Of a stretch of DNA of 51,156 nucleotides, positions 4,755-51,156 are shown in pieces. The stretch lies in the NCBI GenBank assembly GCA_038045185.1, contig JBBSYO010000017.1:1-51156 (forward strand). The letters are read 5' to 3'. The translations under genes were made by a program, and so were the position numbers. The stretch's first letter is position 1, and each line of letters opens with the position of its first letter. Under the pieces are notes generated by a model. The model was not told the origin of the DNA. It did no database searches and was given only the letters and a program-made list of their open reading frames with translations. Source of the stretch: Nanobdellota archaeon (lineage in GTDB: Archaea > Nanobdellota > Nanobdellia > Pacearchaeales > GW2011-AR1).

Positions 4755-4889
4755 ATGAAAAAATATCTGCTTTTGATAGAGGATGAGAAGCTATGGGGAA
4801 GGTTTAAAGAGATTATAGAAAATGATATTAACAGCGAGCTTATTGAGCTTGTCAGGGAGAAAGTGAAACGGGGGCAGAAACATGAATAA
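4755..4889 (+). CDS. 44 aa protein, possible ribbon-helix-helix
   Basis: MKKYLLLIEDEKLWGRFKEIIENDINSELIELVREKVKRGQKHE; stop overlaps the start of 4882. Below the ORF-track cutoff. Confidence 0.6.
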   Translation: MKKYLLLIEDEKLWGRFKEIIENDINSELIELVREKVKRGQKHE

Positions 4890-6732
4890 AAGAGGGCAGG
4901 TAGCTATTTTTGTAATTATTGCGGTTGTGCTTGTTGGAGCTATACTTGTTGCTGTGGCTTTTCGTGAGCGTATTTTTACGAAGAGTGTGCCGAGCGAGCT
5001 GCAGCCTGTGTTTGATTATTATACTGCGTGTATTGAACAGGAAATGCGGGGAGCGATAGAACTTGCGGGTTTGCAGGGAGGAAGAATTGAGCTTGGTATT
5101 TATGAGCCGGGAAATGATTATGCACCTTTCTCTACGGAGTTGCAATTTTTAGGAACACGCGTGCCGTATTGGTCGCGTGTAAATGCACGAGGTAATTTTG
5201 TGCAGGATGTGCCGACACGTGTTGAGATGGCGAATGATATGGGGGGGTTTGTGAAAGACGGTTTGTCAAGATGTGACTTTAGCGCGTTTCGGGAGCAGGG
5301 ATTTGATGTGACTCTTGATGTTAGCGATGTGGATGTTAGTGTTGAAGATTCGCGTGTGAACGTGGATGTTAGCTCGCGTTTGAGTGTGAGCAAGGGAGAT
5401 GCTTCAGTGAGCCAGAGCAGCCAAAGTGCTGTTGTAGAGTCGCGTTTGGGGGCGATGCATACGCAGGCACTTTCGGTGTATAATAATGAACAGCAGGAGC
5501 TATTTCTGGAGAGGTATGCTGTTGATGTGCTAAGGAGTTATGCACCTGTTGACGGCGTGTCGGTGCGATGCAGTCCTGAAATCTGGCGCACGGCAGATGT
5601 TGTTCAGAATCTTACGGACGCGCTCGTGGCTAATATGGGCCAGATTCGTTTTGAGCGCACGAAACGTTCTGGGAGCGAGGGATACTTTACAGTGACTGGC
5701 GTTGGTGATGTGCCTGCGCGCATTGTGTATGCAGGCGAGTGGCCGCATAGAATTGAAATAACTCCTGCTTCGCAGACGCTGATGATAGCAGAGCCAGTTG
5801 GCAACGAGCCGGGCATGGGCATTCTGGGCTTCTGCTATGCGCCGTATCATTTTGTGTATGATATTAATTTTCCGGTAATGGTGCAGCTTTATGATGGCGA
5901 TGAAGTGTTTCAGTTTCCGCTTGTTGTTGTGGTAGATGATAACGTGGCTCGGGCATCTAGTGGAGGGGGTATAACTTTGGCGAATGATACAGATATCTGC
6001 AGTTTCAAGGAAGGAAATGTGCATGTGGAAAGTTACGACAATTCACTCAGGGCTGTTGAAGCATCTGTTCGCTATCAGTGTTTTGAGCAGGTGTGCGATG
6101 TTGGCGAGACTGAGATACGCGATGGTGTCGCTTCTCTTGATGCTGCTTTACCGGTGTGTGTGAATGGTCAATTGATTGCTGAGTCAGAAGGATATGTGCG
6201 TTCGAGTAAATTGTTTTCGTCTAATAGTGAGACGAGTGCAGAATTCATTCTTGAGAAGAGTTATCCGATGCGTGTGAATGTGAAGGTTGATGGGAGAGAT
6301 ATTGTTTTGGGGAGCAGTGCGATTGTGCATTTTACTAGTGTTGATGGAACGGCAAGCGCTTTGATACCTGAACAAAATTCTATTGAGTTGCATGAGGGAT
6401 ATTACAATGTGAGTGTGTTTGTGTATGGAAACTCGAGTGTGACTATTCCTGCTTCGAGCCGCCAAGAGTGCGTTAAGGTGCCGAGCGGAGGCATTGCTGG
6501 CTTGTTTGGAGCAACGCGCGAAAATTGTTTTGATGTTACATTGCCGGCTACAAATGTGGATTATGCATTGCGCGGAGGAGGCGTCGGCGCGAGTTATATT
6601 CTTGCTTCTGAGCTGGAAGATGGGATAATAAATTTGTATGTTGCTTCTTTGCTTGAACCGCGCTCGCTTGAGCAGCTGCAGACTAATTTTGAATTGTTTA
6701 ACTCAATGGATGTGGAGATGGATTTCGGATGA
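4882..6732 (+). CDS. large pilin-like / surface protein with class III signal peptide
   Basis: MNKRGQ|VAIFVIIAVVLV is an archaeal prepilin-peptidase-type leader. Beta-rich body with paired Cys. Confidence 0.8.
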   Translation: MNKRGQVAIFVIIAVVLVGAILVAVAFRERIFTKSVPSELQPVFDYYTACIEQEMRGAIELAGLQGGRIELGIYEPGNDYAPFSTELQFLGTRVPYWSRVNARGNFVQDVPTRVEMANDMGGFVKDGLSRCDFSAFREQGFDVTLDVSDVDVSVEDSRVNVDVSSRLSVSKGDASVSQSSQSAVVESRLGAMHTQALSVYNNEQQELFLERYAVDVLRSYAPVDGVSVRCSPEIWRTADVVQNLTDALVANMGQIRFERTKRSGSEGYFTVTGVGDVPARIVYAGEWPHRIEITPASQTLMIAEPVGNEPGMGILGFCYAPYHFVYDINFPVMVQLYDGDEVFQFPLVVVVDDNVARASSGGGITLANDTDICSFKEGNVHVESYDNSLRAVEASVRYQCFEQVCDVGETEIRDGVASLDAALPVCVNGQLIAESEGYVRSSKLFSSNSETSAEFILEKSYPMRVNVKVDGRDIVLGSSAIVHFTSVDGTASALIPEQNSIELHEGYYNVSVFVYGNSSVTIPASSRQECVKVPSGGIAGLFGATRENCFDVTLPATNVDYALRGGGVGASYILASELEDGIINLYVASLLEPRSLEQLQTNFELFNSMDVEMDFG

Positions 6733-9700
6733 AAGCTATATTTGCGTGGGGGCTGCTAGTTTGTGTGCTTATTCTCATGTCTGCGAGTGCGTTTGCGGCA
6801 ACGGGCTTTAGTGGTGTGCAGACAGGAAGCGCGCGATTTGTGCAGTATCAACAGTCTCCTGATTTGCAGCGTTATTATGGAAGCCAGCAGCAGGAATACT
6901 GGCCGATTTTGGGTAATACGAATGAAACGTGCCGTGCCCGGCAGGATTTGCTTATTCAGGTAGCGCCGATTGGGTGCCAGCCTGCGGTTGTGCGAAGTGA
7001 TTTGCTGGCAGAGCAGAACGTTCCTGTGTTTTGCCAGATTGACGCGCTGCGATTAAATCCTCTGCTCGACATAAAACAAATAAGGAGCATCGGCTTTTCC
7101 TCGCGTTCGTATCCTAAGGAAATATCTGGAGTGAGTTTTCATCCTGCGCGCGCTGCGCTTCGGACAAACAGCCAACTGCTTGGAGACCCGTTCTTGAATA
7201 ATATAGGGTATGCTGTTGTGCTATTGAAACGCGTGCCTAACGAGACTGGTCTGCCTGATTTTGTGAACTTTACTGTGCAAGCGCGCATAGAATACAATGC
7301 GAATAATGCTTTTGGCGTGGGCGAGAGTGTTATGCTACTTGAACCTGTTTCTGATGAAGAATGGTTGAGTGAGCGCAACAAAAATAGCTTTCTTAAGGGA
7401 AAATATTTTGTTAGACTTGAGTCTGTTGACGCGGAGCAGGCTGTTGTTTCATTTTATGAAGGAGACCGCCGTGTTAATCGTGTGACTGTACGACGCGGGG
7501 AAAAATCAAATAGTGGTTTGTATATCCCCGGGTCTTATTGTCAAGGCGAGGTGCGCGTGGTTTATGAGGGTTCGGAACTGCCTAAACCGAGTGTTCGCTT
7601 GCAAGTGGATGACGATGTGCTTTCGTTGTATGAAGGAGCGTCGTTTTTGAATAATAAATGCCGCGTGAATAAACTGCGTGCGAGCAATAGTTCTGGCGGC
7701 GAGGTTGAGATTTCGTGCGGGAGTGAGAAATTTGTTTTGAGGATTGCGCCTCGTGAATTGCAGAAAGGAGATAGCGTGTATCGCTTTGTGGATGGCGCTG
7801 TGAACACATCTGATGGCGTGTGGATTATTGATAATGTGAAGAAAGATAATTCTGGTGAGATAAACTATACTCTTAAGCAGAAAGACAAGTCGGATATAAT
7901 TATCAATGCAAATGAGGTGAGACCGGCTTCTGATGGGGTGTTGTATGAAGCAGAGCATTCAGGAGAGCTGAAGGTCGCTTATGACCATGCGATTGCACAG
8001 TATCAACGCGTGGCTGAGCTGTATCCTGATGAAAAATCTACTAAATCAGAACTTGAGGGAGTGAGCAGATTTGGGGAGTATGCGCTTTCTCGCGCGATTA
8101 GTTTGGCTGAACTGATGGGCAAGGAGCGCAGTGCTGTTGAGTTGATGAACAGTTATATTGGTAAATATCCTGATGGAGGGCGTGCTTCAGAATATGCGCT
8201 GACTTTGAATAGCCATTATCAGTATGACTTGCGCAATGCGGTGACTGTGGTTGATGTAGATGGGGCGACACCGAGCACACTACGACTCTTAAGTGTTGAG
8301 CAACCGCGCCAGACTTCGAGAGCAAGCTTCTCGTTTGCAGGACGACCAATTCCTGATGTTCCGCTTGGCGCGAGCATTACTCTTACTAATGGAAAAAATA
8401 TGACTCTTGATAAGATTGAGAAAGAAAGTGCTAGTGTGACTGTCTATTGTCCTGAGGAACGCAAGCGTTCTGTTTCTCTACGCCTTGATGAGACGCAGTC
8501 GTTGTGCGGGGGCGTGTTGAAACTTGAAGATGTTGAAAGCGCGTCTGTGGCGCGCATACGTTTGCTGCCTGGGTCGGTGCGCGGAGTCGGCATTGAGACA
8601 AATGTGACTATCGGTGTTGGCATTGAGAAGCGCGCGTTTAAACTGACGCCTGAAAAGACGAATGAACGTCTTGAAGAACTCAATAAGACGATTAAGCGAT
8701 GGGACCAGCTTTCCACTAATTTGGGAAATGTGGTTAAGGGCATGAAGGCTGCTTGCTTTGCTACTGCTGGCGTGCTAACTGTGAAGAATTTTGTGACTGG
8801 TTTAAGTGGAGAAGCGCTGGCGCGCAAGAATGTGATGCAGGGACCAAATGGTTGGACAGAATGGTGCGGAAAGGCAGTCAATGGGCAGATAGCTGGAGTT
8901 AGCTATGAAAGTGTTGGGCAGTGCTATTCTGCCAAGTCTGTGGATATACAACGCGATGTGGAGAGCATGACGCGCAAGATTGCCGCAGAAAATAAAAGAA
9001 TAAAAGATATTGAGTCAAGCTCTGACATTAGTTCGTCTGACGGTCTTTTCGGAGAACGAGTTGATGGCACAGCTGCTGCTGCGCGGTATGCGGATAGTTT
9101 TGATGCTTCAACGAAAAACACGCAAATAACCTTGGCGAATGGACAGAATAAAACTATTGGCGAGCTAACGAGCGAGCAGAACGAAAAGCGTTATGCTACG
9201 TATGAAGAGACCAAAGAGATGCAACTGTATGCTTCAGTGTTAAACGATGCTTCGAGTTCTAATGTTGCTAAGGATGCTGCGCGTGAGCGTTTGAAACGCG
9301 TTGGGGGATTGGTGAATGAGCGTGTTAATGTGCAGGGCTCGCGTGATAGCTGGTCGCAATCAGCAGGCACACAGGTTGAGATATTTACTTCTAAAGATTC
9401 TGTGAATGCGCATTATTATGGGCAGACTCTGGGGCAGAAGGACTATGGATTGAGTTTTGATGTGGCGAATAACTTATCTGCTGATACGCCTGTGCAAGTT
9501 GTTGGTGTGGAACAAAATGGAGTTGTGAAACCATATCTTGCGGTGCTGCAAGATTCTGGAGATGGAGTTTATGGGGCAAAGGAGTATTACGAATTGAATA
9601 AAGATACACTTCAAGTAACAAATAGTTCTCCTGTGTTTTTGCCTAACTCGCGCATCGGAACGTTCTCTAAACTGGACCAGACTACTTGTTTCAATAAAAT

Positions 9701-12413
9701 GAGCAATCCCAAGATACAATATTACGAGAGTGAGCCATACAAAGGCATGCCTGCGGTTGTGCCGTTTGATGTTGAACAGGGGTGGTATGCGGGGACACGG
9801 CAGACGCTTGCAGGATTTGGAAATGTGAAGGCGTTTCAATCTTCTGGGAGACCGACGAGCTTTTGGGTGTGCAATGTGGGCGGAGACCATGAAATTGATT
9901 TCTTTGTTTCTGGGTTTGACGACGATGAATGCCAGCAATTCAATGTTGAGACAGGCGCTCCTTTGGATAGCTTTGCGTGCTTAGACGAGAGAGGAACGAA
10001 GCGTCTAGTTGACAGAGCGGTGCGTGCTTTGCAAGATGCAGCGCAGCAGCGCAAAGATGGCTCGCGGTTTGCACGCATCGAGGGACAGACGATTGAGATA
10101 GGCAATCCTGCAATGAATTTGCCTGGGACACAATGCCAGGACTTTATGAGTCCTAGTGATTGCAAGTTGCTTTTTAACGTGTGCGACCCTGTGATTTGTC
10201 CAGCGAGCCGTTGCAATCTTGGCGGAGCGTATAATGTGCCTGATGTTATTCAGAGCGGCATTGCTGGAAGTGCTTTATTGTGTTTGCCTAATATTCGAGA
10301 GGGAATTGCAGTGCCTGTGTGCTTGACTGGAATTAAGGCAGGCATTGATGGATATTTATCTATTTTGAAGTCATACCAGTCATGTTTGCAGGAAAGTCAG
10401 ATAAGCGGGCAGTATGTTGGCATTTGTGATGAAGTGACTGCAGTGTATATGTGCGAGTTCTTCTGGAGACAGGCGGCACCGGTAGCGAATGTGCTGCTGC
10501 CAAAACTTGTGCAATTTGCGTATGGGCAGGGGCAGGCGCGCGGAGGAGGGGAGTATCTTACGACACAGAGCGCGTGGGACAATGCGCAGGCTTCTGTGAA
10601 TTACTTTACTCAAAGTTACGCTGTCAATTCTTTGCAGGCGTTTAATATACGTTCGATCGAGGAGGCAGGAACGCCATTTTGCCGTGCTTTTGTGTCGGCT
10701 ACAGCGCCAAGCAAGATTGATGCATTGATTGAGCCAGACAGTCCGCCGCAGTTCCATGCCTGGTTTAGCACGATACCTTATAGTGATGCGACAGTGCCTG
10801 CGACTGCGCAGTATAAGGTGTTCTATCACATTTTTGCAGGAAATGACAGAGGCGTGAGTTATAGTGTTTATTTGAAAGACCCGCCTGCTACTTCGTATTA
10901 TCAGACGACGCCGATTGTAGTTGTGGCGAGCAACTTTGTGCCGCGCGGTCAGGCAGCGAGTGAGACGCGGGACTTTACTGCACCGACAGGATATCAACAG
11001 TTATGCGTGCGCATTGATGATAAAGAAGAGTGCGGATTTAAGCAGGTGAGCACGAGCTTTGCTGTTGACTATGTGAGAGACCAGTTTGCTTCTGATGAAA
11101 TTAATCAACGTGATATTACGAGTGAGAAAGAGTGCGTTTCAGGGAGAGTTAATCCTATGGCTTTGCTGAATCCGAATGTGCAGGAAGCTGCGCAGGAAGC
11201 AATTGACCCTGCCGTATATAATCGCGGGGTAACACGCATTTGTGCGACTGCTAATCCTGGTAGGAATACAGACCCGAGCAGGTTTTTGGATGTTGGGTCG
11301 TGCGGAGAGACGCGCGTGCGATGCTGGCTTGATGTGCAGAGTGTTGATAGAGCTATTAGCGTGGAGAATGCAGGTGTGCGGAATGCGACGTTGAGTGAAT
11401 TTCAGAACGATGTTCGTGTGCAGTTGGGCAATCAGACAAAGTATCTTTATGGCGAAGGAGAAAATAAACTGATTGAGGCGTTAGAAATAAGTGTTGCTGA
11501 TTTTGAAAAAAATGCTAAATCCTTGCTTGAGCCTGGTCGCACTCAACAAAGCAGAATTTTGGCAGAAGAAGCTGATAAATTATACGATAAAGTGCTCTTG
11601 CCTAATTTGAAGGCGCATCTTATTGTGCTGCGCGGACGCGTGTATGAAGCGGTGGCAAGGACATTACATTTGCCATTAGCTGAAACATCTACGCAAGCTT
11701 CTGGAGGTGATGTTGGGGCTGTTGCTGCTTCTGCTGATGCTGTGCGGCTTGAGAAAGCTTACACGCCTCGTTATAGAATTTCATTTGTTATTAACGGAAA
11801 AAATGTTTCTGAATTGTATGTTGAAGGGTCGTCTATTAAATTGGCAAGCGGTCTAACGCCTGAACCCCTGGGGGTTATTGGAGCTTACGGGATAATTACT
11901 TTCTTGCCTGGGACTGTGAATAATGTTAATCTTCAGGCGTTGTCGCGTCAGACAGGTATTGATTTATACCGCACGCTTAACGGGGCGAGTTTACAAGATG
12001 GAAATGTTGAGCTTGTGCTTGGGAGTGATGGCGTTGTGATGGCGTGTCGCGTGGAGTTTATGCAGGGTGGAGTTGTAAATGTAAGCGGCACGTTTGGGCT
12101 TGAGGATTTAGAAATTGTGTTTATTGGATGTGATGATTATCTTAAAAAGTCCGAAGTTGTGGTTACGTTTATTCCGCAGGATCCTCTTGGACAATCTGTT
12201 AGGCTTGAGCCCTTTGCGTATGATAACGCTGTTTGTAATTATCGCGTGAGCTTGACGAGCGTCACGAATAATGTTTTTCCAGGCATTGGGACGCTGCGTG
12301 TAGAATTGCAGAACCGTCAAGGTGTAATTGCAGAGGGCAGTTTTGAGATTGAAGGCGTAAGGGACGGTGAGACGCCCACAGGAATTTTAATTTACGGAGA
12401 TAACTGCCCATAA
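6729..12413 (+). CDS. giant secreted Cys-rich protein (1894 aa), function unknown
   Basis: N-terminal signal peptide, ATGA coupling to the upstream gene, many Cys clusters and a central coiled-coil region. Confidence 0.85.
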   Translation: MKAIFAWGLLVCVLILMSASAFAATGFSGVQTGSARFVQYQQSPDLQRYYGSQQQEYWPILGNTNETCRARQDLLIQVAPIGCQPAVVRSDLLAEQNVPVFCQIDALRLNPLLDIKQIRSIGFSSRSYPKEISGVSFHPARAALRTNSQLLGDPFLNNIGYAVVLLKRVPNETGLPDFVNFTVQARIEYNANNAFGVGESVMLLEPVSDEEWLSERNKNSFLKGKYFVRLESVDAEQAVVSFYEGDRRVNRVTVRRGEKSNSGLYIPGSYCQGEVRVVYEGSELPKPSVRLQVDDDVLSLYEGASFLNNKCRVNKLRASNSSGGEVEISCGSEKFVLRIAPRELQKGDSVYRFVDGAVNTSDGVWIIDNVKKDNSGEINYTLKQKDKSDIIINANEVRPASDGVLYEAEHSGELKVAYDHAIAQYQRVAELYPDEKSTKSELEGVSRFGEYALSRAISLAELMGKERSAVELMNSYIGKYPDGGRASEYALTLNSHYQYDLRNAVTVVDVDGATPSTLRLLSVEQPRQTSRASFSFAGRPIPDVPLGASITLTNGKNMTLDKIEKESASVTVYCPEERKRSVSLRLDETQSLCGGVLKLEDVESASVARIRLLPGSVRGVGIETNVTIGVGIEKRAFKLTPEKTNERLEELNKTIKRWDQLSTNLGNVVKGMKAACFATAGVLTVKNFVTGLSGEALARKNVMQGPNGWTEWCGKAVNGQIAGVSYESVGQCYSAKSVDIQRDVESMTRKIAAENKRIKDIESSSDISSSDGLFGERVDGTAAAARYADSFDASTKNTQITLANGQNKTIGELTSEQNEKRYATYEETKEMQLYASVLNDASSSNVAKDAARERLKRVGGLVNERVNVQGSRDSWSQSAGTQVEIFTSKDSVNAHYYGQTLGQKDYGLSFDVANNLSADTPVQVVGVEQNGVVKPYLAVLQDSGDGVYGAKEYYELNKDTLQVTNSSPVFLPNSRIGTFSKLDQTTCFNKMSNPKIQYYESEPYKGMPAVVPFDVEQGWYAGTRQTLAGFGNVKAFQSSGRPTSFWVCNVGGDHEIDFFVSGFDDDECQQFNVETGAPLDSFACLDERGTKRLVDRAVRALQDAAQQRKDGSRFARIEGQTIEIGNPAMNLPGTQCQDFMSPSDCKLLFNVCDPVICPASRCNLGGAYNVPDVIQSGIAGSALLCLPNIREGIAVPVCLTGIKAGIDGYLSILKSYQSCLQESQISGQYVGICDEVTAVYMCEFFWRQAAPVANVLLPKLVQFAYGQGQARGGGEYLTTQSAWDNAQASVNYFTQSYAVNSLQAFNIRSIEEAGTPFCRAFVSATAPSKIDALIEPDSPPQFHAWFSTIPYSDATVPATAQYKVFYHIFAGNDRGVSYSVYLKDPPATSYYQTTPIVVVASNFVPRGQAASETRDFTAPTGYQQLCVRIDDKEECGFKQVSTSFAVDYVRDQFASDEINQRDITSEKECVSGRVNPMALLNPNVQEAAQEAIDPAVYNRGVTRICATANPGRNTDPSRFLDVGSCGETRVRCWLDVQSVDRAISVENAGVRNATLSEFQNDVRVQLGNQTKYLYGEGENKLIEALEISVADFEKNAKSLLEPGRTQQSRILAEEADKLYDKVLLPNLKAHLIVLRGRVYEAVARTLHLPLAETSTQASGGDVGAVAASADAVRLEKAYTPRYRISFVINGKNVSELYVEGSSIKLASGLTPEPLGVIGAYGIITFLPGTVNNVNLQALSRQTGIDLYRTLNGASLQDGNVELVLGSDGVVMACRVEFMQGGVVNVSGTFGLEDLEIVFIGCDDYLKKSEVVVTFIPQDPLGQSVRLEPFAYDNAVCNYRVSLTSVTNNVFPGIGTLRVELQNRQGVIAEGSFEIEGVRDGETPTGILIYGDNCP

Positions 12414-13310: not shown

Positions 13311-13586
13311 TTAGATGAAGCTTACGATGCCCTTTGCCATGAGGAGAAGCGCGAGTATCCAGAGAATGAAACTCCAGGGCGTGACGAACATGGCGATAAG
13401 CAGTGTAGCTGATGCGAGGAGGTCTATTATGCTTAGCGGCTCTCCTGTTAATATGAAGAGACCCTTAAGAAAGAGCAGTCCTGCACAGAACAATAACAGG
13501 GAAGTGTAAGGTGTTAGTCCGAATATTATAAGGAGCAGTGTGATAGCTGCGAGTATGTCGAGTGCGCCGAGTAGCCTTACTAACAT
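13311..13586 (-). CDS. small integral membrane protein
   Basis: Almost entirely hydrophobic 91 aa with an internal repeat (LD.LA..TLL / LL..KG). Confidence 0.75.
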   Translation of the reverse strand: MLVRLLGALDILAAITLLLIIFGLTPYTSLLLFCAGLLFLKGLFILTGEPLSIIDLLASATLLIAMFVTPWSFILWILALLLMAKGIVSFI

Positions 13587-13690
13587 AAAATTGGCTGGCG
13601 TTGGGGTTTATTAAGATTTATATTCGGGTATATTGTTGCATCTTCGGGTGTTTCGAAAAGGGTTAAAAAGTAGGTTTTCTTTGTGTATGG

Positions 13691-14326
13691 ATGGAAGAAT
13701 TTTTTGTTAAGTCTCTTGAGGAAGATTTTGTCTCTAAAACTCTCGATGGTAAAAATAAAGCGCCCTTTCAATCTATTGAGTCTATGGTCAAAACTAGGGT
13801 AATAAAACCCAATACGAAAAGTTTTGGAAGAAAACGAAGACTTGCATGCACAATATTGAGCGAGAATTATATCAAGACTTACCGCCCCCAGGGCATAATA
13901 TTTCAGACTCGCAATAAGCCAGATTATGTTGCTCCCTTCGATTTAGTTTTATTAAGCAATGCTAAAAAGATAATAGTGCATTATTATAGGATTAAAAATG
14001 ATTTACACTTATACTATAATCATAATCTTATTCCAGGCTATGAGAAGTTTATATTTAAAAATTTTGCAGATATGCTAAAAGAATTTCCTTCTCCCAAGGC
14101 TGCATGGAAGCAGGTTAATAATTTTAGAATTAAGAACGGCAATGGTCCATTACCAAGAGAGAAGTATCGTTTAGTTGAATATAATGAAGTTATTTTTCAT
14201 AGTCCTGTCAAAATAAAACCAATAGGGCTTTTTGGATATCGGCCTGAAGCAAGAGTGATGGCAAGGAAGTTAGGTTTGCCATGCTTTATTTCGGCAAAGG
14301 AATTTTATCATAGCTTGAATAGATGA
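13691..14326 (+). CDS. hypothetical protein (AT-rich accessory gene)
   Basis: Clean 211 aa ORF with a TATA-like GTTAAAAA upstream. Confidence 0.75.
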   Translation: MEEFFVKSLEEDFVSKTLDGKNKAPFQSIESMVKTRVIKPNTKSFGRKRRLACTILSENYIKTYRPQGIIFQTRNKPDYVAPFDLVLLSNAKKIIVHYYRIKNDLHLYYNHNLIPGYEKFIFKNFADMLKEFPSPKAAWKQVNNFRIKNGNGPLPREKYRLVEYNEVIFHSPVKIKPIGLFGYRPEARVMARKLGLPCFISAKEFYHSLNR

Positions 14327-14327
14327 G

Positions 14328-14485
14328 TGCGGGGAATAGTCCTCGCGGACTAATCTTGACTTTCTCTCGCTGCGGGCTTTTTCGCTTTGCCACTGCGCAA
14401 AGGATAAACTTCTTCTCTTGCTGCGCGGTTCCTCGTCTCGGACTGCGGACCTGCTCGCTACGGAAGAAGTTTATGCGGGGAATAG
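14328..14485. repeat. 12-bp direct repeat of the tRNA-Leu 3' end enclosing a 134-bp GC-rich hairpin insert
   Basis: TGCGGGGAATAG at 14328-14339 and 14474-14485. Internal stems AAACTTCTTC/GAAGAAGTTT and GTCC/GGAC. Confidence 0.75.
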
Positions 14486-14557
14486 GATTCGAACCTATGT
14501 AAGCACTAAGCTACTTGGTCCTAAGCCAAGCCCGTTTGACCGCTCCGGCATCCCCGC
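14474..14557 (-). tRNA. tRNA-Leu(TAG)
   Basis: GCGGGGA/TCCCCGC acceptor, anticodon arm CTTGG-CTTAGGA-CCAAG, long variable arm, T-loop TTCGAAT. Confidence 0.95.
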
Positions 14558-14639
14558 GGCATCTTTCAAGAATTTGCAGGGTTTTAAAGGTTTAGCTTGT
14601 TTTCCTATAATTTTTTAAACCCTGCTTATTTAAATTTTC

Positions 14640-15410
14640 ATGGGGTCTCAATCTTTTGAAAGAAATGGTTTGGAAAATGGTTACTCATTCAGACCGCGCG
14701 CATCCAACGGCAGTGTTGGAACGATAGAGGGACGCAGATATGCTGAAGAGCGCGATGCTTTAACTGCAAAAATAGCGGATTACGATGTTCGCATAGTTAA
14801 ATCTGTTTCAGATGGAAGACCTATGTCTGCTCTTGCTTATTGCCGCTGGAGAAATCATTATCAGCATGCTTTTGAATCCTGCAGAAATGCTTTCATTGAG
14901 GCAAATATTCCTTTAGTGCTTTATACGTTTGCTAGATGGATCCGCAGGCAAGGAGGAATTTCAAGGGGGCTGAATTCAGATGAAATTTTATTAGACGCGC
15001 ACCCTACGCTTGTCCGCGCAGCAAATTTGTTTAATCCTGCGAAAGGGCGTTTTTCTACTTATTGCGTTCCTGCTCTGTTAAGAACGTTTGACCGCAAGAA
15101 CAAGAGGGAAGAGAGGTTAATGTCGCGCAGAACCCCTCTTAATGAGACGCCTGATTCATCTACCTGCTCACCTTATCAGCAAGCGGTTGATGCAGAAGAG
15201 AGGACGAATAGACGAATGCTTGTGCAACGTGCGTTTGGCTGCTTATCTCCTCAAGAAATGGAATTGATATCTCTACGTTTCGGAGTTAATCCAGGCAATC
15301 AACGACTTACTCACCGGCAAATTGGAAATTCGTGGGGCTTGGCGCATCAACGAGCTTGGCAGGTGGAAAGAAACGCTCTTGCTAAGCTTAGAAGTGAGAT
15401 AAATGGCTGA
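14640..15410 (+). CDS. sigma-70 family-like protein (regions 2 and 4)
   Basis: FIEANIPLV...LVRAANLFNPAKGRFSTY matches region 2. LSPQEMELISLRFG..LTHRQIG..GL...RAWQVERNALAKLR matches the region 4 HTH. Confidence 0.85.
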   Translation: MGSQSFERNGLENGYSFRPRASNGSVGTIEGRRYAEERDALTAKIADYDVRIVKSVSDGRPMSALAYCRWRNHYQHAFESCRNAFIEANIPLVLYTFARWIRRQGGISRGLNSDEILLDAHPTLVRAANLFNPAKGRFSTYCVPALLRTFDRKNKREERLMSRRTPLNETPDSSTCSPYQQAVDAEERTNRRMLVQRAFGCLSPQEMELISLRFGVNPGNQRLTHRQIGNSWGLAHQRAWQVERNALAKLRSEING

Positions 15411-15444
15411 TTCGTTGAATGCAATGGTTGGCGTTCTGGATTCT

Positions 15445-16162
15445 TCAGCCATAATTATTCGTCCTTTTTCTTTTTTTAGTCCATATCTTGAAAATGTCAG
15501 GTCTTACTTCGCCCCTTATATCTGGAACATACGTATGTCCTGCTTCAACTTCGTTTTCTAATTCTCTTCTTTCTTGATTTACTTGCGTTACCAACCTTGA
15601 AAATCCGTCCCCCCCGCTATTCCTCGCATCTGTTTGGGCAGGATGTTTATTTTTTAAGAGCGTTTCTCTGACCATCTCATCAAAATGCGTTTTATTCGGC
15701 AATTTGCCTTCTGTTTTGTTATATTCGCTTAATGCCTGAAACATTTTATGGAAATCTCCTGTGAATTCATAACCTGTCTGCGTTAATGCCAAACTTATAC
15801 ACTCTAAAGTCTGAATATCACGTCGAGTTGCTGCATAAGGCGCGGTCGATCTTACTATTGATTTGATGTCAGAAATGCTGGTTCAAACCGCGCCCTTTAG
15901 GGCGCCGCATTTCTGAGCATCCAAAAGTCCACACAAACCACACCCCTTAGGGTGTGGTAAAACTCATGGACTTTTTGATATTTGCTATTTGATAATGGGC
16001 AGGCAGTCTGTTAAATTGTTTTTTTTGATATGCTCTATCGATTATACCTGTGAGGATTTCCAAAGCGCTATCTTGATTAGAATATACTTTAGAAACTCTT
16101 CTAGCAAATTCGTGCAGCCTTGATATTTCTCCTGGTTTATTGAACCATTTTTCTTTATGCAT
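15445..16162 (-). pseudogene. hypothetical gene (about 201 aa) split by a 112-bp palindromic insertion
   Basis: Deleting 15868-15979 fuses ORFs 15947-16174 and 15445-15792 in frame (..QIANIKSIVRSTAPYAATRRDIQTLECISLALTQ..). Confidence 0.75.
15868..15979. mobile_element. nested-hairpin element (family B)
   Basis: TCAGAAATGC..GCATTTCTGA followed by CAAAAGTCC..GGACTTTTTG, each with an inner CCYTTAGG hairpin. Shares an identical 23-mer with 38445 and 51088. Confidence 0.85.
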
Positions 16163-16222
16163 AGAAATTGTCAAAAATTCTACTATATAAAGTTTCCCAT
16201 GTTATCACTTTTAAGAAGTGTT

Positions 16223-17176
16223 TTATTTCTTCTTGGCTTCTGGAGCTGAAGCAGCAGCCGTAGCTTTCTTTTGCTCGAATTCCTTGAGTTTGTCTTCGAT
16301 GCCAAGTCGTTCTATTAGTTCCTTGTACCTGTTTCTTATTGTGACTTCGGTGATGCCTGCGACGTCTGCAACTTCTCTCTGCGTGCGTTTTTCGTTGTTT
16401 AGGAGAGCTGCAACGTAGAGCGCTGCTGCTGCAATGCCTGCTGGTCCTCTTCCGGATGTAAGCTCAGAGATGTCTGCCTTGGCTAATATTTTGAGCGCTT
16501 CGTTTTGCACTTTGGGAGAGAGATGTAAAATTGAGGAGAATCTTGATATGTAGTCTTTAGGCGATGAAGGAGGCACTTTGATGCCCAGCTTGCGAATCAT
16601 GAATCTATACGTGCGTCCAATTTCTTTTCGTGCGACATCCGAAGTTGCTGCGATTTCGTCTAATGTGCGCGGAATGTTGTAGGAACGGCAGGCGGCGTAA
16701 ATGCATGCGGCGATAACAGATTCCATTGACCTGCCCCGGACAAGGCCTCTTTGCAGGACGAAGTTGTATACGCGGGCAGCCTCATCGCGCACGACGCTCG
16801 GGAGATTTAGGAACGACGTTTCCCGACGGAGTTCTGCCATAGCAAGTCTGAGATTGCGTTCGATAGAAGTGGAAACACGCTCCTGCCATTTTTTTAGGCG
16901 CAGGAATTTGCGCGTTTGACCGTGGTCGAGCCGATAGATATCTGAGATTTCTCCGACGTTTGTTGTGAGCCCCTTGTCAAATTTCTGCACTGATAATGGC
17001 GCGCCCGAACGGCCTCTTTTTTCGCCCTTGTCAAATTGACCTCCGCCTTCCTGACCAGTGTCAACCATTTTTTCTTCAATAATCAAGCCGCAATCGTTGC
17101 AAATAATCTCTCCTTTTTGGTCATCGTAAGTGAGATTAATGCTAGAACATTCCGGGCAACGTTTAACGTATGTCAT
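16223..17176 (-). CDS. tfb: transcription initiation factor IIB
   Basis: CPEC..CNDCG Zn ribbon, cyclin repeats with RGRS/GRGP, and TQREVADVAGITEVTIRNRYKEL. Confidence 0.97.
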   Translation of the reverse strand: MTYVKRCPECSSINLTYDDQKGEIICNDCGLIIEEKMVDTGQEGGGQFDKGEKRGRSGAPLSVQKFDKGLTTNVGEISDIYRLDHGQTRKFLRLKKWQERVSTSIERNLRLAMAELRRETSFLNLPSVVRDEAARVYNFVLQRGLVRGRSMESVIAACIYAACRSYNIPRTLDEIAATSDVARKEIGRTYRFMIRKLGIKVPPSSPKDYISRFSSILHLSPKVQNEALKILAKADISELTSGRGPAGIAAAALYVAALLNNEKRTQREVADVAGITEVTIRNRYKELIERLGIEDKLKEFEQKKATAAASAPEAKKK

Positions 17177-17283
17177 CGACGAGAGATATGAAAAGATTTA
17201 AAAATGGTTGTCGAGATGACTATTTAAAGCTTTGGGGCTTTATAAAGGGGCTTTGCCTGCTGGCGCGTACGAATATACTTTCT

Positions 17284-17643
17284 TTATTTGATGAGAACGG
17301 CATTAATTTGACCTTCTTGTGATGGTCTGTTTGTTATTCTGGCCTTGCCGAGAGGAGTTTCGATGATTGCGCCCTTCATTAGGCGGTTTGAACGCGCAAG
17401 GAACTTGTTTTGAGGAGTTTCAATAACGTTTACGACGTCTGTTTTTTGTATCTTTTTGCCATCACTCACGTTGGCGATGTTTGAGTTGAGCAGAATCTGC
17501 TTTAAGGCTCCGCCTTTTACGCGAAGCTGCTTGCTTTTGTGCTCGCCGAGTGTGACGTGGCGTTCCTGATTGCGCCGTTCGTAGAATCGGGACTTGCGAT
17601 TTGCATGATATTTTGCACCGCTTGTTTTACGACCTTTGTTCAT
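17284..17643 (-). CDS. rps8e: 30S ribosomal protein S8e
   Basis: KGAIIETPLGKARITNRPSQEGQINAVL C-terminal signature. Confidence 0.93.
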   Translation of the reverse strand: MNKGRKTSGAKYHANRKSRFYERRNQERHVTLGEHKSKQLRVKGGALKQILLNSNIANVSDGKKIQKTDVVNVIETPQNKFLARSNRLMKGAIIETPLGKARITNRPSQEGQINAVLIK

Positions 17644-17716
17644 AATTGATGTTTTGTTAGAGGGTTTAAATAGCTTTTGGGAGAAGGGTTTGTTTGCGCG
17701 GGTTTGAGTTTTATTT

Positions 17717-18292
17717 CTACGTAATCTTATCTTTTGCGCTAATATCTCTTTTTAATAAATTAAGTAGTTCTAATAAAGAATCCCCTAAATTTTTACGAGA
17801 GAAAATTAGGTCGTTTTCTAATTTCCATCCAACACCCATGGATGGAAACCAGATAGGTCTGGCTATTTGTCTCTCTTTTTTTCCAGAGGTCTGAAACTTA
17901 GCTAGTGGAATTCTAAGTTTTGTAAAATTAGTTAATGTCTCTGCTAGCTTTTTTCTCGTTTCGTCTCCAATTCTATCGTTAATTTTTTCTATCCGTTCGT
18001 CTATTGATCTAACCAATTCATAAGCTCCAATTACCCATAATCTAGAAACAACAAAATGTCTATTTCTTTTTAGCAAATCCTGTTCTGATTGATATTTAGC
18101 ATTCAAATTTGCATATTCTTCAACTAACTCTGCGTCCAGCATTCCTAATCCCTGTGCGTCAATAATCATAAATGGCTCTATTTGTGCTAAACAGAACGAA
18201 CTATTAATCCATTCGCTCCATCTGTTAGTATCCATTACAATTGTCCCCGTACTCTCTAAAATCAATTTGATTCTATTTAAGAACATTTCCAA
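17717..18292 (-). CDS. hypothetical helical protein (AT-rich accessory)
   Basis: Clean ORF with the motif SRLWVIGAYE..LRIPLAK. The start may be the ATG at 18286. Confidence 0.7.
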   Translation of the reverse strand: MEMFLNRIKLILESTGTIVMDTNRWSEWINSSFCLAQIEPFMIIDAQGLGMLDAELVEEYANLNAKYQSEQDLLKRNRHFVVSRLWVIGAYELVRSIDERIEKINDRIGDETRKKLAETLTNFTKLRIPLAKFQTSGKKERQIARPIWFPSMGVGWKLENDLIFSRKNLGDSLLELLNLLKRDISAKDKIT

Positions 18293-34821: not shown

Positions 34822-34912
34822 ATGTTTAACTTGTTTAACAAGTTTATAAATTTTACTATTTCATTTGCAGCGCCTGCGGAAGTTTTAAATCAGGTTCTTG
34901 CAAGATAAAGAC

Positions 34913-37837
34913 ATGGCTAAGAAAAAATCCTCGAAAACTCTGAATTTTAAAGCCATGGAGCGAAAATGGCAGAGAGCTTGGGATGAGGCTGAAGCGTATA
35001 AGAGTTTCGATAGCTCTGAGAAAAAGAAATGCTATGTGTGCGAGATGTTTCCTTATCCGAGCGCGAGTTTTTTGCATGTTGGGCATATGCGCAATTTCAC
35101 GATTGGCGATTTGATTGCGCGATATAAACGGATGAAGGGTTTTAATGTGATGTATCCGATGGGGTTCGATGCCTTCGGTCTGCCTGCGGAGAATGCCGCA
35201 ATTAAGCAGGGCATTCGTCCGAAGAAGTATACTGAAAATGCAATTAAGACGATAAAGAAGTATATGCGTGAACTGGCTTTGAGTTATGACTGGAGTCGGG
35301 AGCTTGCGACGTGTTCGCCGGAATATTACAGGTGGAATCAATGGTTATTTTTGCGCATGCTTGAGAAGGGAATTGCTTATCGCAAGAAGGCGCCTGTTAA
35401 CTGGTGCCCTTCGTGCAAGACAGTACTGGCTAACGAAGAAGTTGTTGCTGGAAAGTGCTGGCGATGCGACAGCGATGTGACGATTGAGCTTCTGGAGCAA
35501 TGGTTCTTGAAAATTACCAATTATGCGGATGAATTGCTGGAAGGACTTGAGGGATTGAACTGGCCCGAACGAGTTAAAGAACTGCAACGAAACTGGATTG
35601 GACGACGCGAGGGGACGAAGGTTGTATTCCCTATTAAGGGCAGCGAGAAGGCTCTTGAAGTTTTCACCACGCGTGCAGATACACTTTATGGAGTGACTTT
35701 TGTGGCATGTGCGGTACAGCATGAGATTGTTGAAGGTCTTGTTAGGGGAACGAAATATGAAAAGGCTTACAAACAGTTTGTTAAAGATATGTCGGCTTCT
35801 GAAAAATTGGAAGCTGATAAAGAGAAGCACGGATTTTTTATCGGGAAGCATGCAATACATCCGTTGACGAATGAAGAGATTCCGATTTATGCGGGCAATT
35901 TTGTGGTTGCAGGTTATGGCACGGGTGCGGTGATGGGCGTGCCTGCGCATGACCAAAGGGATTTTGAGTTTGCGAAGAAACATAAATTACCGATTAAACA
36001 GGTTGTAGCCCCGCTTTTTGTCACAACTGAGGGAAAGGACGCGATTAGAAAAGATAAGCCCACTATCGCCAGAGATACTGTATTTGCCATTGTTAAACAT
36101 TGGGAGGATGATAAATATTTCTGCCTTGACTGGAAGAAATTTGGATGGAAAAGCTTAGTTATCGGAGGAATTGATGATGGCGAATCTCCTGAAGATGCCG
36201 CAATTAGAGAGGTAAAAGAAGAAACTGGTTACCAAGATATTAAGTCTGTTGCCTCCATAGGTTTTGAGAACCACGGCAACTATTATGCAGAACATAAGGG
36301 AGTTAATAGATATGCAAGGTTCAAGACTTTCTTAGTGACTTTAAAATCTGGAAAGCGTATTGAACCAGATAAAGAGCATGTGCAAAATCATTATGGTTTA
36401 TGGATAGAAGGCAAGGATGTAGAGAGTTTTCTTAATTTGCCAAATAATAAATATGTTTGGGATATTTATGCCAACGGCGAGAGGGCATTTGTTGATGGTG
36501 GCGTTTTAATTAATTCAGACGTTTTCAACGGGCTTGATTCTGCGACTGCGCGGGAACGCATTAGTGAAATGCTTGCAAAAAAGGGCGTCGGTGGGAAGAC
36601 CGTTGAATATAAACTGCGGGACTGGCTGATTTCGCGACAGCGTTATTGGGGAACGCCGATTCCCATTGTATATTGCAAGGATTGCGGGGTTGTGCCAGTT
36701 CCTGAAAAAGATTTGCCTGTTGTGCTGCCGGATAAGGTTAAGTTTACAGGGAAGGGCAACCCCTTGCTGACGAATGAAGGGTTTGTCAATACTAGTTGTC
36801 CGTGCTGTGGAGGAAAGGCACGGCGTGAGACTGATACGATGGCAACGTTCTTTGATTCGAGTTGGTATTATCTGCGTTATTGCTCTCCTAACAGCCACGA
36901 TATTTTTGACAGAAAAGCAGTTGAGTATTGGATGCCGGTTGATTATTACATTGGGGGGATTGAACATGCGGTGCTGCATTTGCTGTATGCGCGTTTTTTC
37001 ACGAAGTTTTTGCGTGACATTGGATGGGTGACATTTGATGAGCCGTTTAAACGCCTTTTTAGCCAAGGGATGGTTCTGGCAAAAAGCGGCGAGAGAATGA
37101 GCAAGAGCAAGGGAAATGCTGTTACGACGAAGGAAGCGTGCAGTCGTTATGGCGTGGATGCGACACGATTCTTCATGCTGTTTGTTGCAAGTCCTGATAA
37201 AGATATGGAATGGGACGAACACGGAATTGAAGGCGTGCATCGGTTTGTGACGCGTTTTAAGGAATTATTTAATCGTGTAGGGGGGGCGGCGAATGCGCTG
37301 ATGGAACACAAACTTCACTCTACGTTAAGAACTGTTGAGCAGAGTTATGAACAGTTTGAGTTTAATAAAGGGCTTGTGGCGTTTATGGAATTTGTGGGAT
37401 ATTTGGCTGAGCAAAAGCAGGTGCCGAGGTTTGTGCTTGAGAATTGCTTGTTGATTATCGCGCCGGTGATGCCGCATTTGGCAGAGGAATTGTGGCATAG
37501 GCTTGGGAGGGCGAGCTTGATTGTGCAGGAGCGTTGGCCGCATGTGGATGAAAGCAAGATTGATGATGCGCTTGATGAGTCTGAACGTGCGCGCGAGAAG
37601 ACGTTTAATGATATTCAGACGGTTCTACGTCTTGTGAGAGAAAAGACTGGCAAAGAACCGAAGAAATTGTATATTTACACGATTCCGCCCGAGGTTGGAC
37701 AGTATTCTGCAGAAGATTTATCGAAGCGTTTAAGTATTGAAGTTAAGGTATTTGCTGTGAATGATTCGCATAAATACGACCCGGAGGGCAAGGCAGGCAA
37801 GGCGCGACTTGGGAAGCCTGCGTTGTATGTTGCATGA
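34913..37837 (+). CDS. leuS: leucine--tRNA ligase, bacterial-type core with inserted Nudix domain
   Basis: [44 protein letters not shown] and RMSKS. Internal Nudix box [22 protein letters not shown]. Confidence 0.96.
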
Positions 37838-38336: not shown

Positions 38337-38559
38337 ATGTCACGAACGTTAAAACCTTGTCCTTTAGGACAAGGCGTTCGTGAGCACAAGAGAATTGATT
38401 AAACGTTTCAATTCTCTGTGCAGCAAATCGTGTTCGATTTGCTTGCATCCAAAAGTCCACACAAACCTCGGCTCATCAAGAATCTCAATTCTTGACTGCC
38501 ATCAAGAACCATAGGTTCTTGAGGTTTAAGCCGAGGTGAACTCAAGGACTTTTTGATAT
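38337..38559. mobile_element. composite nested-hairpin array (family B plus the module shared with 1612-1684)
   Basis: At least eight stems, including TCACGAACG/CGTTCGTGA, CCTTGTCC/GGACAAGG, AGCAAATCG/CGATTTGCT, CAAAAGTCC/GGACTTTTTG, CCTCGGC/GCCGAGG and TCAAGAA/TTCTTGA twice. Confidence 0.88.
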
Positions 38560-50370: not shown

Positions 50371-51063
50371 ATGGGCGATAAACTTGTGGATGTAATTCGT
50401 GACGGCGAGATTGTTACAGTGAGCGAAGCGCAGGCACGCGCCGAGGATTTGTTTATTCTGCGCGAGAGGCACGCTCCTCCTGCAGCGCCAGCGCCCTTGA
50501 CTGGACATCCTGCTTTGCGAACAACAATTCCGGTTCGTGCGACTTCTGCGCAGAAAGCAGTACCCAGATGGCATAGTTATCAGCCTGAGTATACAAAGAA
50601 TAATGTGGCTAAGGAGTTGATTGATAATTTCCATTGGGAGATTGGGAAGGCGCGAAGAGAGCGAAATATGACTCGTTTGCAAATGGCGAATGCGCTCAAT
50701 ACGAATGAAGGCATTATCAAGATGCTTGAAAATGGTGAATTGCCGAGCGATGATTTTGTACTTATCAATAAAGTGCAATCTTTTTTGCATATTAATCTAC
50801 GACGCGATGGCAAGAGTTTTGACGCTTCTGCGCGGGCGCAGCTTTCTTCTTCTTTACCTGCGCCAAGTGCTAGTTCTGCTACTCCTCCTGTGGCAAAGCC
50901 GCACTATGACGCGAATATTTCCCTAGCTGAATTGCAGCGCATGAAGGCGCGTGACGCGCCTGTGCGTGAAAAACCAAGATGGGTAAAAGATAAACCATTT
51001 GAAGAAAGAAGGGGCTCTTTGTTTGGCGAGGATATTGAGATTATTGGATCAAAAAGTCCTTAA
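50371..51063 (+). CDS. aMBF1-like HTH protein
   Basis: ELIDNFHWEI.KARR...T..Q.A......IKMLENG.LP HTH. No Zn-ribbon Cys. The stop codon lies in the downstream element. Confidence 0.8.
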   Translation: MGDKLVDVIRDGEIVTVSEAQARAEDLFILRERHAPPAAPAPLTGHPALRTTIPVRATSAQKAVPRWHSYQPEYTKNNVAKELIDNFHWEIGKARRERNMTRLQMANALNTNEGIIKMLENGELPSDDFVLINKVQSFLHINLRRDGKSFDASARAQLSSSLPAPSASSATPPVAKPHYDANISLAELQRMKARDAPVREKPRWVKDKPFEERRGSLFGEDIEIIGSKSP

Positions 51064-51156
51064 GTCTTACCACACCCTAAAAGGTGTGGTTTGTGTGGAC
51101 TTTTGGATGCTCAAGGAACGACACCATCCTAATGGATGGTGTTTTCTGTCAAGTTC
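51048..51156. mobile_element. nested-hairpin element (family B), reverse orientation, runs off the window end
   Basis: 51088-51110 is the reverse complement of GCATCCAAAAGTCCACACAAACC. Inner hairpins CCACACC/GGTGTGG and ACACCATCC/GGATGGTGT. Confidence 0.88.

Follow-up and report, generated by a model that had tools for sequence, protein, structure and literature searches.

A highly divergent sigma-70-family gene on a strain-variable two-gene cassette in a Nanobdellota archaeon

A stretch of 51,156 nucleotides from a Nanobdellota archaeon of the order Pacearchaeales (GenBank assembly GCA_038045185.1, contig JBBSYO010000017.1, positions 1 to 51,156; the whole stretch is referred to below as the window) was analysed around an intact open reading frame (ORF) on its forward strand at 14640..15410, which was found to encode a genuine, highly divergent member of the sigma-70 family (256 residues, ATG start, stop codon within the coordinates). 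The gene is carried, together with a split partner gene, on a strain-variable segment of 1,663 bp (14558..16220) located between a tRNA-Leu gene and the stop codon of tfb, the gene for transcription factor B, and the presence or absence of this two-gene cassette is polymorphic between close strains. Of the three sigma-like genes in its genome, it is also the most divergent. A preliminary description of this DNA had noted a sigma-70-like protein in an archaeon; this is no surprise after the main text of Castelle et al. (2021, Front Microbiol, PMC8204110), in which sigma-70 genes (fam00359) of DPANN genomes, 'particularly prevalent in Woesearchaeota', are already in print; the location of such a gene on a strain-variable cassette, and its standing as the most divergent of three, is a modest addition to that general phenomenon.

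Family membership was assessed with profile models, database searches and alignments. The NCBIfam model TIGR02937, which covers sigma-2 and sigma-4, matched the protein at 45.0 bits against a cut-off of 42.9, a small margin (residues 81-253 on model positions 2-164/165; 45.9 bits for the same gene in the genome-wide scan), and Pfam PF04545 (Sigma70_r4) matched residues 198-251 at 32.2 bits against a cut-off of 24.1. These matches, each above its cut-off, and the archaeal context of the contig uphold the description of the gene as a sigma-70-like protein in an archaeal genome. Its further statement that both region 2 and a region 4 helix-turn-helix can be recognised held for region 4, through Sigma70_r4 and TIGR02937, and failed for region 2 in the Pfam scan, where Sigma70_r2 was not matched; on the homologue P0002 that model reached 18.7 bits, under its cut-off of 24. 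Region 2 was supported by TIGR02937, by phmmer alignments to sigma proteins, by hhalign and by the fit of a structural model to solved sigma-2 domains. No match to Sigma70_r3 was obtained in the Pfam scan, and the domain order is sigma-2, linker, sigma-4. The ORF was intact as described, and the motifs quoted from it were located in its translation (IEANIPLV, residues 86-93; RAANLFNPAKGRFSTY, residues 126-141; CVPALLR, residues 142-148).

A phmmer search of 1.84 billion representatives yielded 3,220 matches at E <= 0.001, 21 of them at E <= 1e-10, the best non-self match showing 38% identity over residues 80-253. In an alignment of 60 sequences, for which 58 of the 150 phmmer matches listed were combined with the query and P0002, Sigma70_r4 was present in all 60 and Sigma70_r2 in 57. 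Each of the 54 distinct chains retrieved by a sequence search of the PDB was a sigma factor, and comparison by hhalign of the two-member family (query and P0002) with the neighbouring clade gave 99.6% over 177 columns. A search of species genomes with the alignment of that neighbouring clade returned distant bacterial sigma genes only, the best being from Planctomycetota at 36-39%. P0002 is the sole close homologue known; over the full length, with no stops, it is 61% identical to the query, the identity being distributed unevenly over the N-terminal helices (33/42, 79%), sigma-4 (45/63, 71%), sigma-2 (51/85, 60%) and the N-terminal tail (10/33, 30%).

A structural model was predicted with AlphaFold from a 60-row alignment of sigma proteins, with a mean predicted local distance difference test (pLDDT) score of 79 and values above 90 within both domains (residues 80-160 and 180-256). 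Foldseek returned 109 PDB matches to this model at E <= 0.001, and all 49 among the matches listed were sigma chains. Model residues 76-158 were superposed on the sigma-2 domain of SigE (8b3z_D; VIA-align) with a Z-score of 10.3 and a root-mean-square deviation (rmsd) of 1.6 Å over 77 aligned residues, and model residues 194-255 on Taq sigma-4 (1ku3) with a Z-score of 9.6 and an rmsd of 1.3 Å over 61/61 residues; domain-wise fits to solved sigma domains gave rmsd values of 1.0-2.5 Å. An N-terminal extension of 75 residues, conserved with P0002, precedes sigma-2, and its helical part (residues 34-75; 14739..14864, forward strand) is the best-conserved portion relative to P0002, with predicted helices at residues 31-57 and 61-70 and pLDDT values of 50-69. 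The sigma-2 domain (residues 76-160; 14865..15119, forward strand), delimited from the structure fit and an alignment to SigA, comprises regions 2.1-2.4, and six extra residues are inserted between 2.1 and 2.2. It is followed by a linker of 30 residues (161-190; 15120..15209, forward strand; pLDDT 63-67) without sigma-3 and by the sigma-4 helix-turn-helix domain (residues 191-253; 15210..15398, forward strand), delimited from Sigma70_r4, the fit to 1ku3 and the alignment.

Within sigma-2, region 2.2 was poorly conserved in the alignment to SigA, and in region 2.3 the residues F131, F138 and Y141 are retained, with P144 and A145 in place of the WW pair. From the residue roles in E. coli sigma-70, these three residues and the WW pair are taken by us to be the aromatic core that handles the -10 element. 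The preliminary description had set CVPALLR against ATWWIR, the usual promoter-melting residues; this is not a special loss of them, as the nearest relatives in the 60-sequence alignment likewise lack the WW pair (consensus RFSTYAxxAIxR). Factors of the SigB/F/G type read FSTYAVP at this place. In the recognition helix of sigma-4, HQRAWQVE is found where relatives have KERVRQIE, a change also present in P0002. The architecture of sigma-2 and sigma-4 without sigma-3 is that of bacterial group 4 (extracytoplasmic function, ECF) sigma factors, the solved bacterial domains resembled being the sigma-2 of SigE (8b3z) and the sigma-4 of SigK and SigL (4nqw, 3hug), and the query has, like the bacterial group 3 and ECF factors, an FSTY motif in region 2.3 and a helix-turn-helix in region 4.2. 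By sequence, however, the query is closer to longer, non-ECF sigma proteins than to ECF factors, and it differs from group 3 and ECF factors in its divergent region 2.2 and the 6-residue insert between 2.1 and 2.2, from its relatives in having W where they have R in the recognition helix, and from bacterial sigma factors in residing in a genome without a bacterial core polymerase.

The integrity of the locus and its variation between strains were examined in public assemblies and sequencing runs. The same protein was recorded from 8 contigs, the longest of 92.7 kb, and the surrounding 5-kb stretch was found in 20 public runs from 6 studies, 13 of which carry at least half of its words; the labelled runs were all groundwater metagenomes. 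Contigs from four runs not flagged as source (X6, X7, X9 and X11) were compared with the window. Window-identical contigs spanned the passage from the tRNA into the sigma-like gene in X7 (14501-15137), X9 (14528-15818) and X11 (14528-14897), and contigs from X6 (15997-17738) and X7 (15951-16481) spanned the passage from the N-terminal half of the partner gene into tfb, the unitig breaks being confined to a repeat at about 15864-15980. In contigs of X9 and X11, which belong to one study, position 14557 was joined to 16221 with the 1,663 bp omitted, a joint whose shorter side measures 30 letters, for which 90% likeness was allowed and which may include a short spacer between its sides. The mean word depth of this joined form was 80.9 and 42.2 in X9 and X11, compared with 8.3 and 4-7 for the cassette-bearing contigs, and its flanks differed from the window by about 1-3.5%, pointing to a close relative of the window strain. 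A 46-bp insertion or deletion at 14349-14396, just downstream of the 3' end of tRNA-Leu, also distinguishes the window strain from the dominant strain of X9 and X11.

The locus was further compared across the genus, where tfb orthologues of 91-96% identity were found in all 8 other species. No DNA similarity to 14560-16220 was detected in these 8 loci, and no orthologue of the sigma-like protein was found in the 8 species, the best match in the genus being 27% identical. In four of them (G003, G004, G005 and G006) tfb and tRNA-Leu(TAG) are about 40-60 nt apart, G001 has an amino-acid-kinase gene between the two and G002 a DUF3419 gene, and in the tfb loci of G007 and G008 no tRNA was found. 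Across these genomes and that of the window, the spacer between tfb and tRNA-Leu(TAG) is a hot spot for differing cargo. One assembly (P0152, contig of 92,875 nt) gives only a C-terminal product of 157 residues for the sigma-like gene; the window and P0153 both have the gene at full length. The first residues of P0152 correspond to the window DNA in another frame up to a run of five G (14965-14969; region about 14940-14970). On the evidence of the protein sequences alone, this would be consistent with a run shorter by one G, caused either by a real frameshift or by a homopolymer error.

The gene is archaeal in its context, its codon usage and its type of promoter. The tRNA-Leu gene (anticodon TAG; 14474..14557, reverse strand), whose 5' end forms the left border of the variable segment, was identified by ARAGORN and by Rfam (tRNA, 59.1 bits) and is transcribed divergently from the sigma-like gene, as described; Rfam gave no match other than the tRNA over 13500-17500. 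Inside the 82-bp spacer between the two genes, a TATA-like box TTTAAA (14583..14588, reverse strand) lies 31 nt upstream of the tRNA 5' end. The archaeal-style box reported about 27 bp upstream of the sigma-like ORF was recovered as TTTTAAAC at 14613-14620, with 27 bp from its first T to the ATG, and forms part of a TATA-like element consisting of a T run followed by AAAC (14611..14620, forward strand; matrix score 4.8, offset -28). Leaderless genes predominate in this genome. Of 711 crude gene calls, 98 have a TTTAWA that begins 29 nt upstream of the ATG, and an A-rich element lies at -33/-32; these genes were used to train the promoter matrix. The score of 4.8 corresponds to the 60th percentile of genes and was reached by 1.5% of 1,468 coding-sequence controls, and it is comparable to the scores of S8e (3.8) and tfb (7.4). 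The promoter of the sigma-like gene is plausible, though off the modal spacing. Among 608 crude gene calls, the codon score of the gene ranks at the 42nd percentile, and its GC content is 0.452 against a genome mean of 0.417. On the right flank, tfb (16223..17176, reverse strand; Pfam TFIIB 162.8 bits, Zn_Ribbon_TF 39.4 bits) is separated from the sigma-like ORF by exactly one gene, as stated earlier, although this gene is now split. Among the 36 further ORFs scanned in the window, genes for S3Ae, L44e, S8e, an LSM protein, a tRNA-intron endonuclease and TFE-alpha were recognised on both sides.

The genome (0.909 Mb in 84 contigs, completeness 82.9%, contamination 1.2%) was searched for large-subunit polymerase genes. 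A single gene of the Rpb1/beta' type was present in this 83% complete genome, encoding an archaeal Rpo1 of 1,144 residues, which scored 226 bits on the bacterial rpoC model TIGR02386 against a cut-off of 963.5; no cognate bacterial-type core RNA polymerase was found with the rpoC model in the 83% of the genome that is covered. The clamp coiled-coil of Rpo1 is invariant among 30 relatives. A prediction of the complex between residues 70-256 of the sigma-like protein and residues 1-420 of Rpo1, run without controls, gave scores of 0.26 and 0.15 against a mark of 0.32 and is evidence neither way. The A' and A'' parts of this Rpo1 are joined in one frame of 1,144 residues (contig C66, L058:388-3822, reverse strand), and open frames of 1,095-1,203 residues were found for Rpo1 in 39/39 matching genomes of the order (41 searched).

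The partner gene was reconstructed from two small ORFs on the reverse strand (15445-15792 and 15947-16174), which are the halves of one gene convergent with the sigma-like gene. A protein of 196 residues from another metagenome (P0156) was aligned with the window by residues 1-63 at 16162-15974 and by residues 59-194 at 15876-15463 in a different frame, with 65-66% identity overall. The N-terminal part of the gene (15980..16162, reverse strand, ATG at 16162; residues 1-63 of P0156, tblastn 66% identity; P0157) is preceded by the TATA box TTTATATA (16184..16191, reverse strand), which starts exactly 29 nt before the ATG, the modal spacing of the genome, and the C-terminal part occupies 15463..15861 (reverse strand; about residues 64-194 of P0156, tblastn 65% identity; P0155, P0156). 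Between the two lies a double-hairpin repeat of 106 nt (15868-15973; 15862..15979 with its flanks), bounded by ATCAAA direct repeats at 15862-15867 and 15974-15979. P0156 and the sigma homologue P0154 each list a longest contig of 3,064 nt, and the P0002/P0154 sigma and the P0156 partner are, from this equal length, probably adjacent in another organism too. No match to the partner was found in Pfam, PHROG or PADLOC and no usable match in the atlas, its structure model was unusable (pLDDT 40), and distant homologues of 30% identity were detected in 2 further genomes of 201, not beside sigma-like ORFs.

The repeat looks like a MITE/REP-like element of the lineage. It is composed of two modules of about 56 and 63 nt, each with an outer stem that surrounds CAAACC, a GC-rich stem of 6 bp and a YTTA loop, and its inner stems vary between the two modules in a compensatory manner. 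Both modules recur on many contigs of the genome, with further copies at 51048-51113 and 38445-38559 of the window and on contigs C60, C56, C53, C20, C23, C38 and C32, which explains why, in all four runs, the summed contig depth at this place is very high and loose ends are numerous. The copy described here was inserted in a protein-coding gene with a 6-bp target duplication (ATCAAA), has no match in Rfam and breaks metagenome unitigs.

Two further sigma-like genes were identified in the genome, on contigs C37 (328 residues) and C78 (193 residues). Unlike the ORF at 14640-15410, both were matched by Pfam Sigma70_r2 and Sigma70_r4 well over the cut-offs, and their TIGR02937 scores were 91 and 85 bits compared with 46; like it, they are members of the superfamily, with upstream regions of archaeal type and archaeal neighbours (deoxyhypusine synthase, FtsZ, glycosyltransferase). 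Across the order, the TIGR02937 cut-off was passed in 78 of 201 genomes and a match at E <= 1e-5 was obtained in 108 of 201, several of these sigma-family genes lying on contigs of 200-760 kb; in the same search 10 of 14 control genomes were over the cut-off. At the level of the family, matches were also present in the four same-genus genomes included in the scan. A tree of 114 rows was calculated by a quick method from the query, P0002, 40 archaeal ORFs and the representatives P0003-P0074 of the 150 listed. Although only 11 of its 110 inner branches were well supported, the pairing of the query with P0002 on a long stem received a support of 99, and this pair lay outside the main clades of the order and apart from the paralogues on C37 and C78, a placement that was itself weakly supported, the three genes of the genome not being mutual nearest relatives. 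Two scans of metagenome contigs and one of genome contigs found no DNA of close relatives.

A literature search found no paper on archaeal sigma-like proteins beyond that of Castelle et al. (2021), whose main text reports that mis-binning was excluded and that no anti-sigma factors were found, and leaves the mechanism open. Like fam00359 as described there, the present gene is of the sigma-70 type, occurs in a small archaeal genome beside TBP, TFB and TFE and has no recognised anti-sigma factor. It differs from the main-text description of that family in that the query and P0002 form an isolated long-branch pair without a Sigma70_r2 match, and in its conserved N-terminal extension, its altered recognition helix and its location on a strain-variable cassette.

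Taken together, these results are most economically read as describing a sigma-derived helix-turn-helix regulator that is accessory and was acquired horizontally, rather than a classical sigma factor, a reading on which our confidence is evenly balanced and which retains the repurposed DNA-binding regulator of the preliminary description. The family, the fold, the archaeal context, the native codon usage and type of promoter, the polymorphism between strains and the breakage of the partner gene are established by the results above, whereas the function is our inference. The protein consists of the conserved 75-residue N-terminal extension, sigma-2, a short linker and sigma-4. Its gene belongs to an accessory cassette in which two genes converge, each behind a leaderless promoter of archaeal type, and this strain alone carries the cassette between tfb and tRNA-Leu. 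Its sigma-4 domain, with a recognition helix rewired but conserved in one homologue, would provide sequence-specific DNA binding, the N-terminal helices and sigma-2 may serve as a protein-contact or regulatory module, and the function so controlled would be non-essential. As the organism has an archaeal RNA polymerase only and its own TBP, TFB and TFE, a role in initiation by promoter melting is most likely absent; the lack of the gene in a close strain and in congeneric species argues against a core role, and the 61% identity to P0002, uneven by domain, favours a residual function. Several observations weigh against this reading. The Pfam model of region 2 (PF04542, Sigma70_r2) gave zero matches to the protein at E <= 1, and several of the differing positions in region 2.2 are presumably contacts of the beta' clamp helices, as in E. 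coli sigma-70, which places the function of sigma-2 in doubt. The family of the query (P0001) and P0002 comprises two protein clusters, so that statistics of conservation drawn from two close members are thin, and no DNA target of the protein was found. The partner gene is split and shifted in frame by the 106-nt repeat, and this broken partner, together with the 157-residue product P0152, would fit a cassette in decay rather than a working regulator.

The last point leads to the rival that has to be taken most seriously, although we regard it as unlikely: that the cassette is decaying cargo, a recent horizontal acquisition or selfish remnant without function here, in which the sigma-like ORF has merely not yet been hit. 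The repeat insertion in the partner, the shortened product of one assembly, the lack of the cassette in a close strain and in 8 congeneric species and the tiny size of the family (2 clusters) are all consistent with it. In the window and in P0153, however, the ORF runs its full length, its identity to P0002 ranges from 79% in the N-terminal helices to 30% in the tail with no stops, and its codon usage and promoter show adaptation to the host, which argues against decay. It is improbable that the protein is a true sigma-like specificity factor of the archaeal polymerase, with sigma-2 docked at the coiled-coil of the Rpo1 clamp, the same site that TFE and Spt5 use, and with sigma-4 reading a promoter-proximal element so that the enzyme would be redirected to special promoters. 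Both domains are predicted to fold like solved sigma factors, the region 2.3 core (F131, F138, Y141) is kept, the clamp coiled-coil is invariant in the 30 relatives, and the 78 of 201 genomes over the cut-off, some with the gene on contigs of hundreds of kb, suggest long-term retention in the lineage; against this, strains can do without the gene, conservation of region 2.2 is poor and Sigma70_r2 is unmatched, and the literature search found no precedent. A bolder form of the same idea, in our judgement rather more doubtful, would make the P0001/P0002 type a small archaeal lineage of factors, derived from sigma, with a new partner: the Rpo1 clamp would be gripped by the strongly conserved N-terminal helices together with sigma-2, the rewired sigma-4 would read a new DNA element, the bacterial sigma scaffold would act as an alternative promoter-specificity subunit of an archaeal, Pol II-like polymerase, and the 196-residue neighbour would be its dedicated antagonist or cofactor.

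The position of the cassette, abutting a tRNA gene where species of the genus hold differing cargo, its polymorphism between strains and a weak match to the phage sigma-factor family phrog_351 (38.4 bits) would suit a regulator from a mobile element or virus remnant, delivered beside the tRNA and once in control of the element's own genes. This too is an improbable origin: the 1.66 kb showed no integrase, no tRNA-derived direct repeat and no further gene of a mobile kind, PADLOC gave only a sigma-4-level match to MzaA (21.6 bits), and the segment is on the 5' side of the tRNA, whereas integration beside tRNA genes usually occurs on the 3' side. The proposal in the preliminary description of a protein delivered to a bacterial partner or host and acting on its RNA polymerase is not supported and is considered very improbable. 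The normal partner of the family is a bacterial core polymerase, and the abstract of Castelle et al. (2021) presents such organisms as presumed symbionts, the known hosts being mostly other archaea. Inspection by eye revealed no signal peptide or hydrophobic N-terminal stretch, no secretion genes adjoin the locus, the gene is dispensable between strains and divergent in region 2.2, and it is adapted to archaeal expression signals. An assembly chimera or contaminating bacterial fragment, which had been raised as a concern, is favoured by the bacterial affinity of the family and by nothing else, and is hardly credible: independent contigs from three studies bridge both borders, independent assemblies bear the gene in the same context, the protein is present on 8 contigs of up to 92.7 kb, and the segment has native composition, archaeal promoters and a copy of the genome's own repeat inside it.

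If sigma-derived proteins do act on the archaeal transcription machinery, they would represent a natural experiment in which the two great systems of initiation are mixed. From the present locus it is seen that even very close strains can differ by the gain or loss of a sigma-like gene on a small cassette and that such a gene can be fully adapted to archaeal expression signals, and the locus supplies a candidate partner gene for the sigma-like protein. Elsewhere in the window, two ORFs on the forward strand, of 616 residues (4882-6732) and 1,894 residues (6729-12413), were without a Pfam match at E <= 1e-4; the region they occupy has a markedly higher GC content (0.46-0.48) and a strong GC skew, and the N-terminus of the longer product resembles a signal peptide. 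The leucyl-tRNA synthetase ORF (34898-37837, forward strand) contains a match to a NUDIX domain at residues 416-494, inserted after the editing domain.

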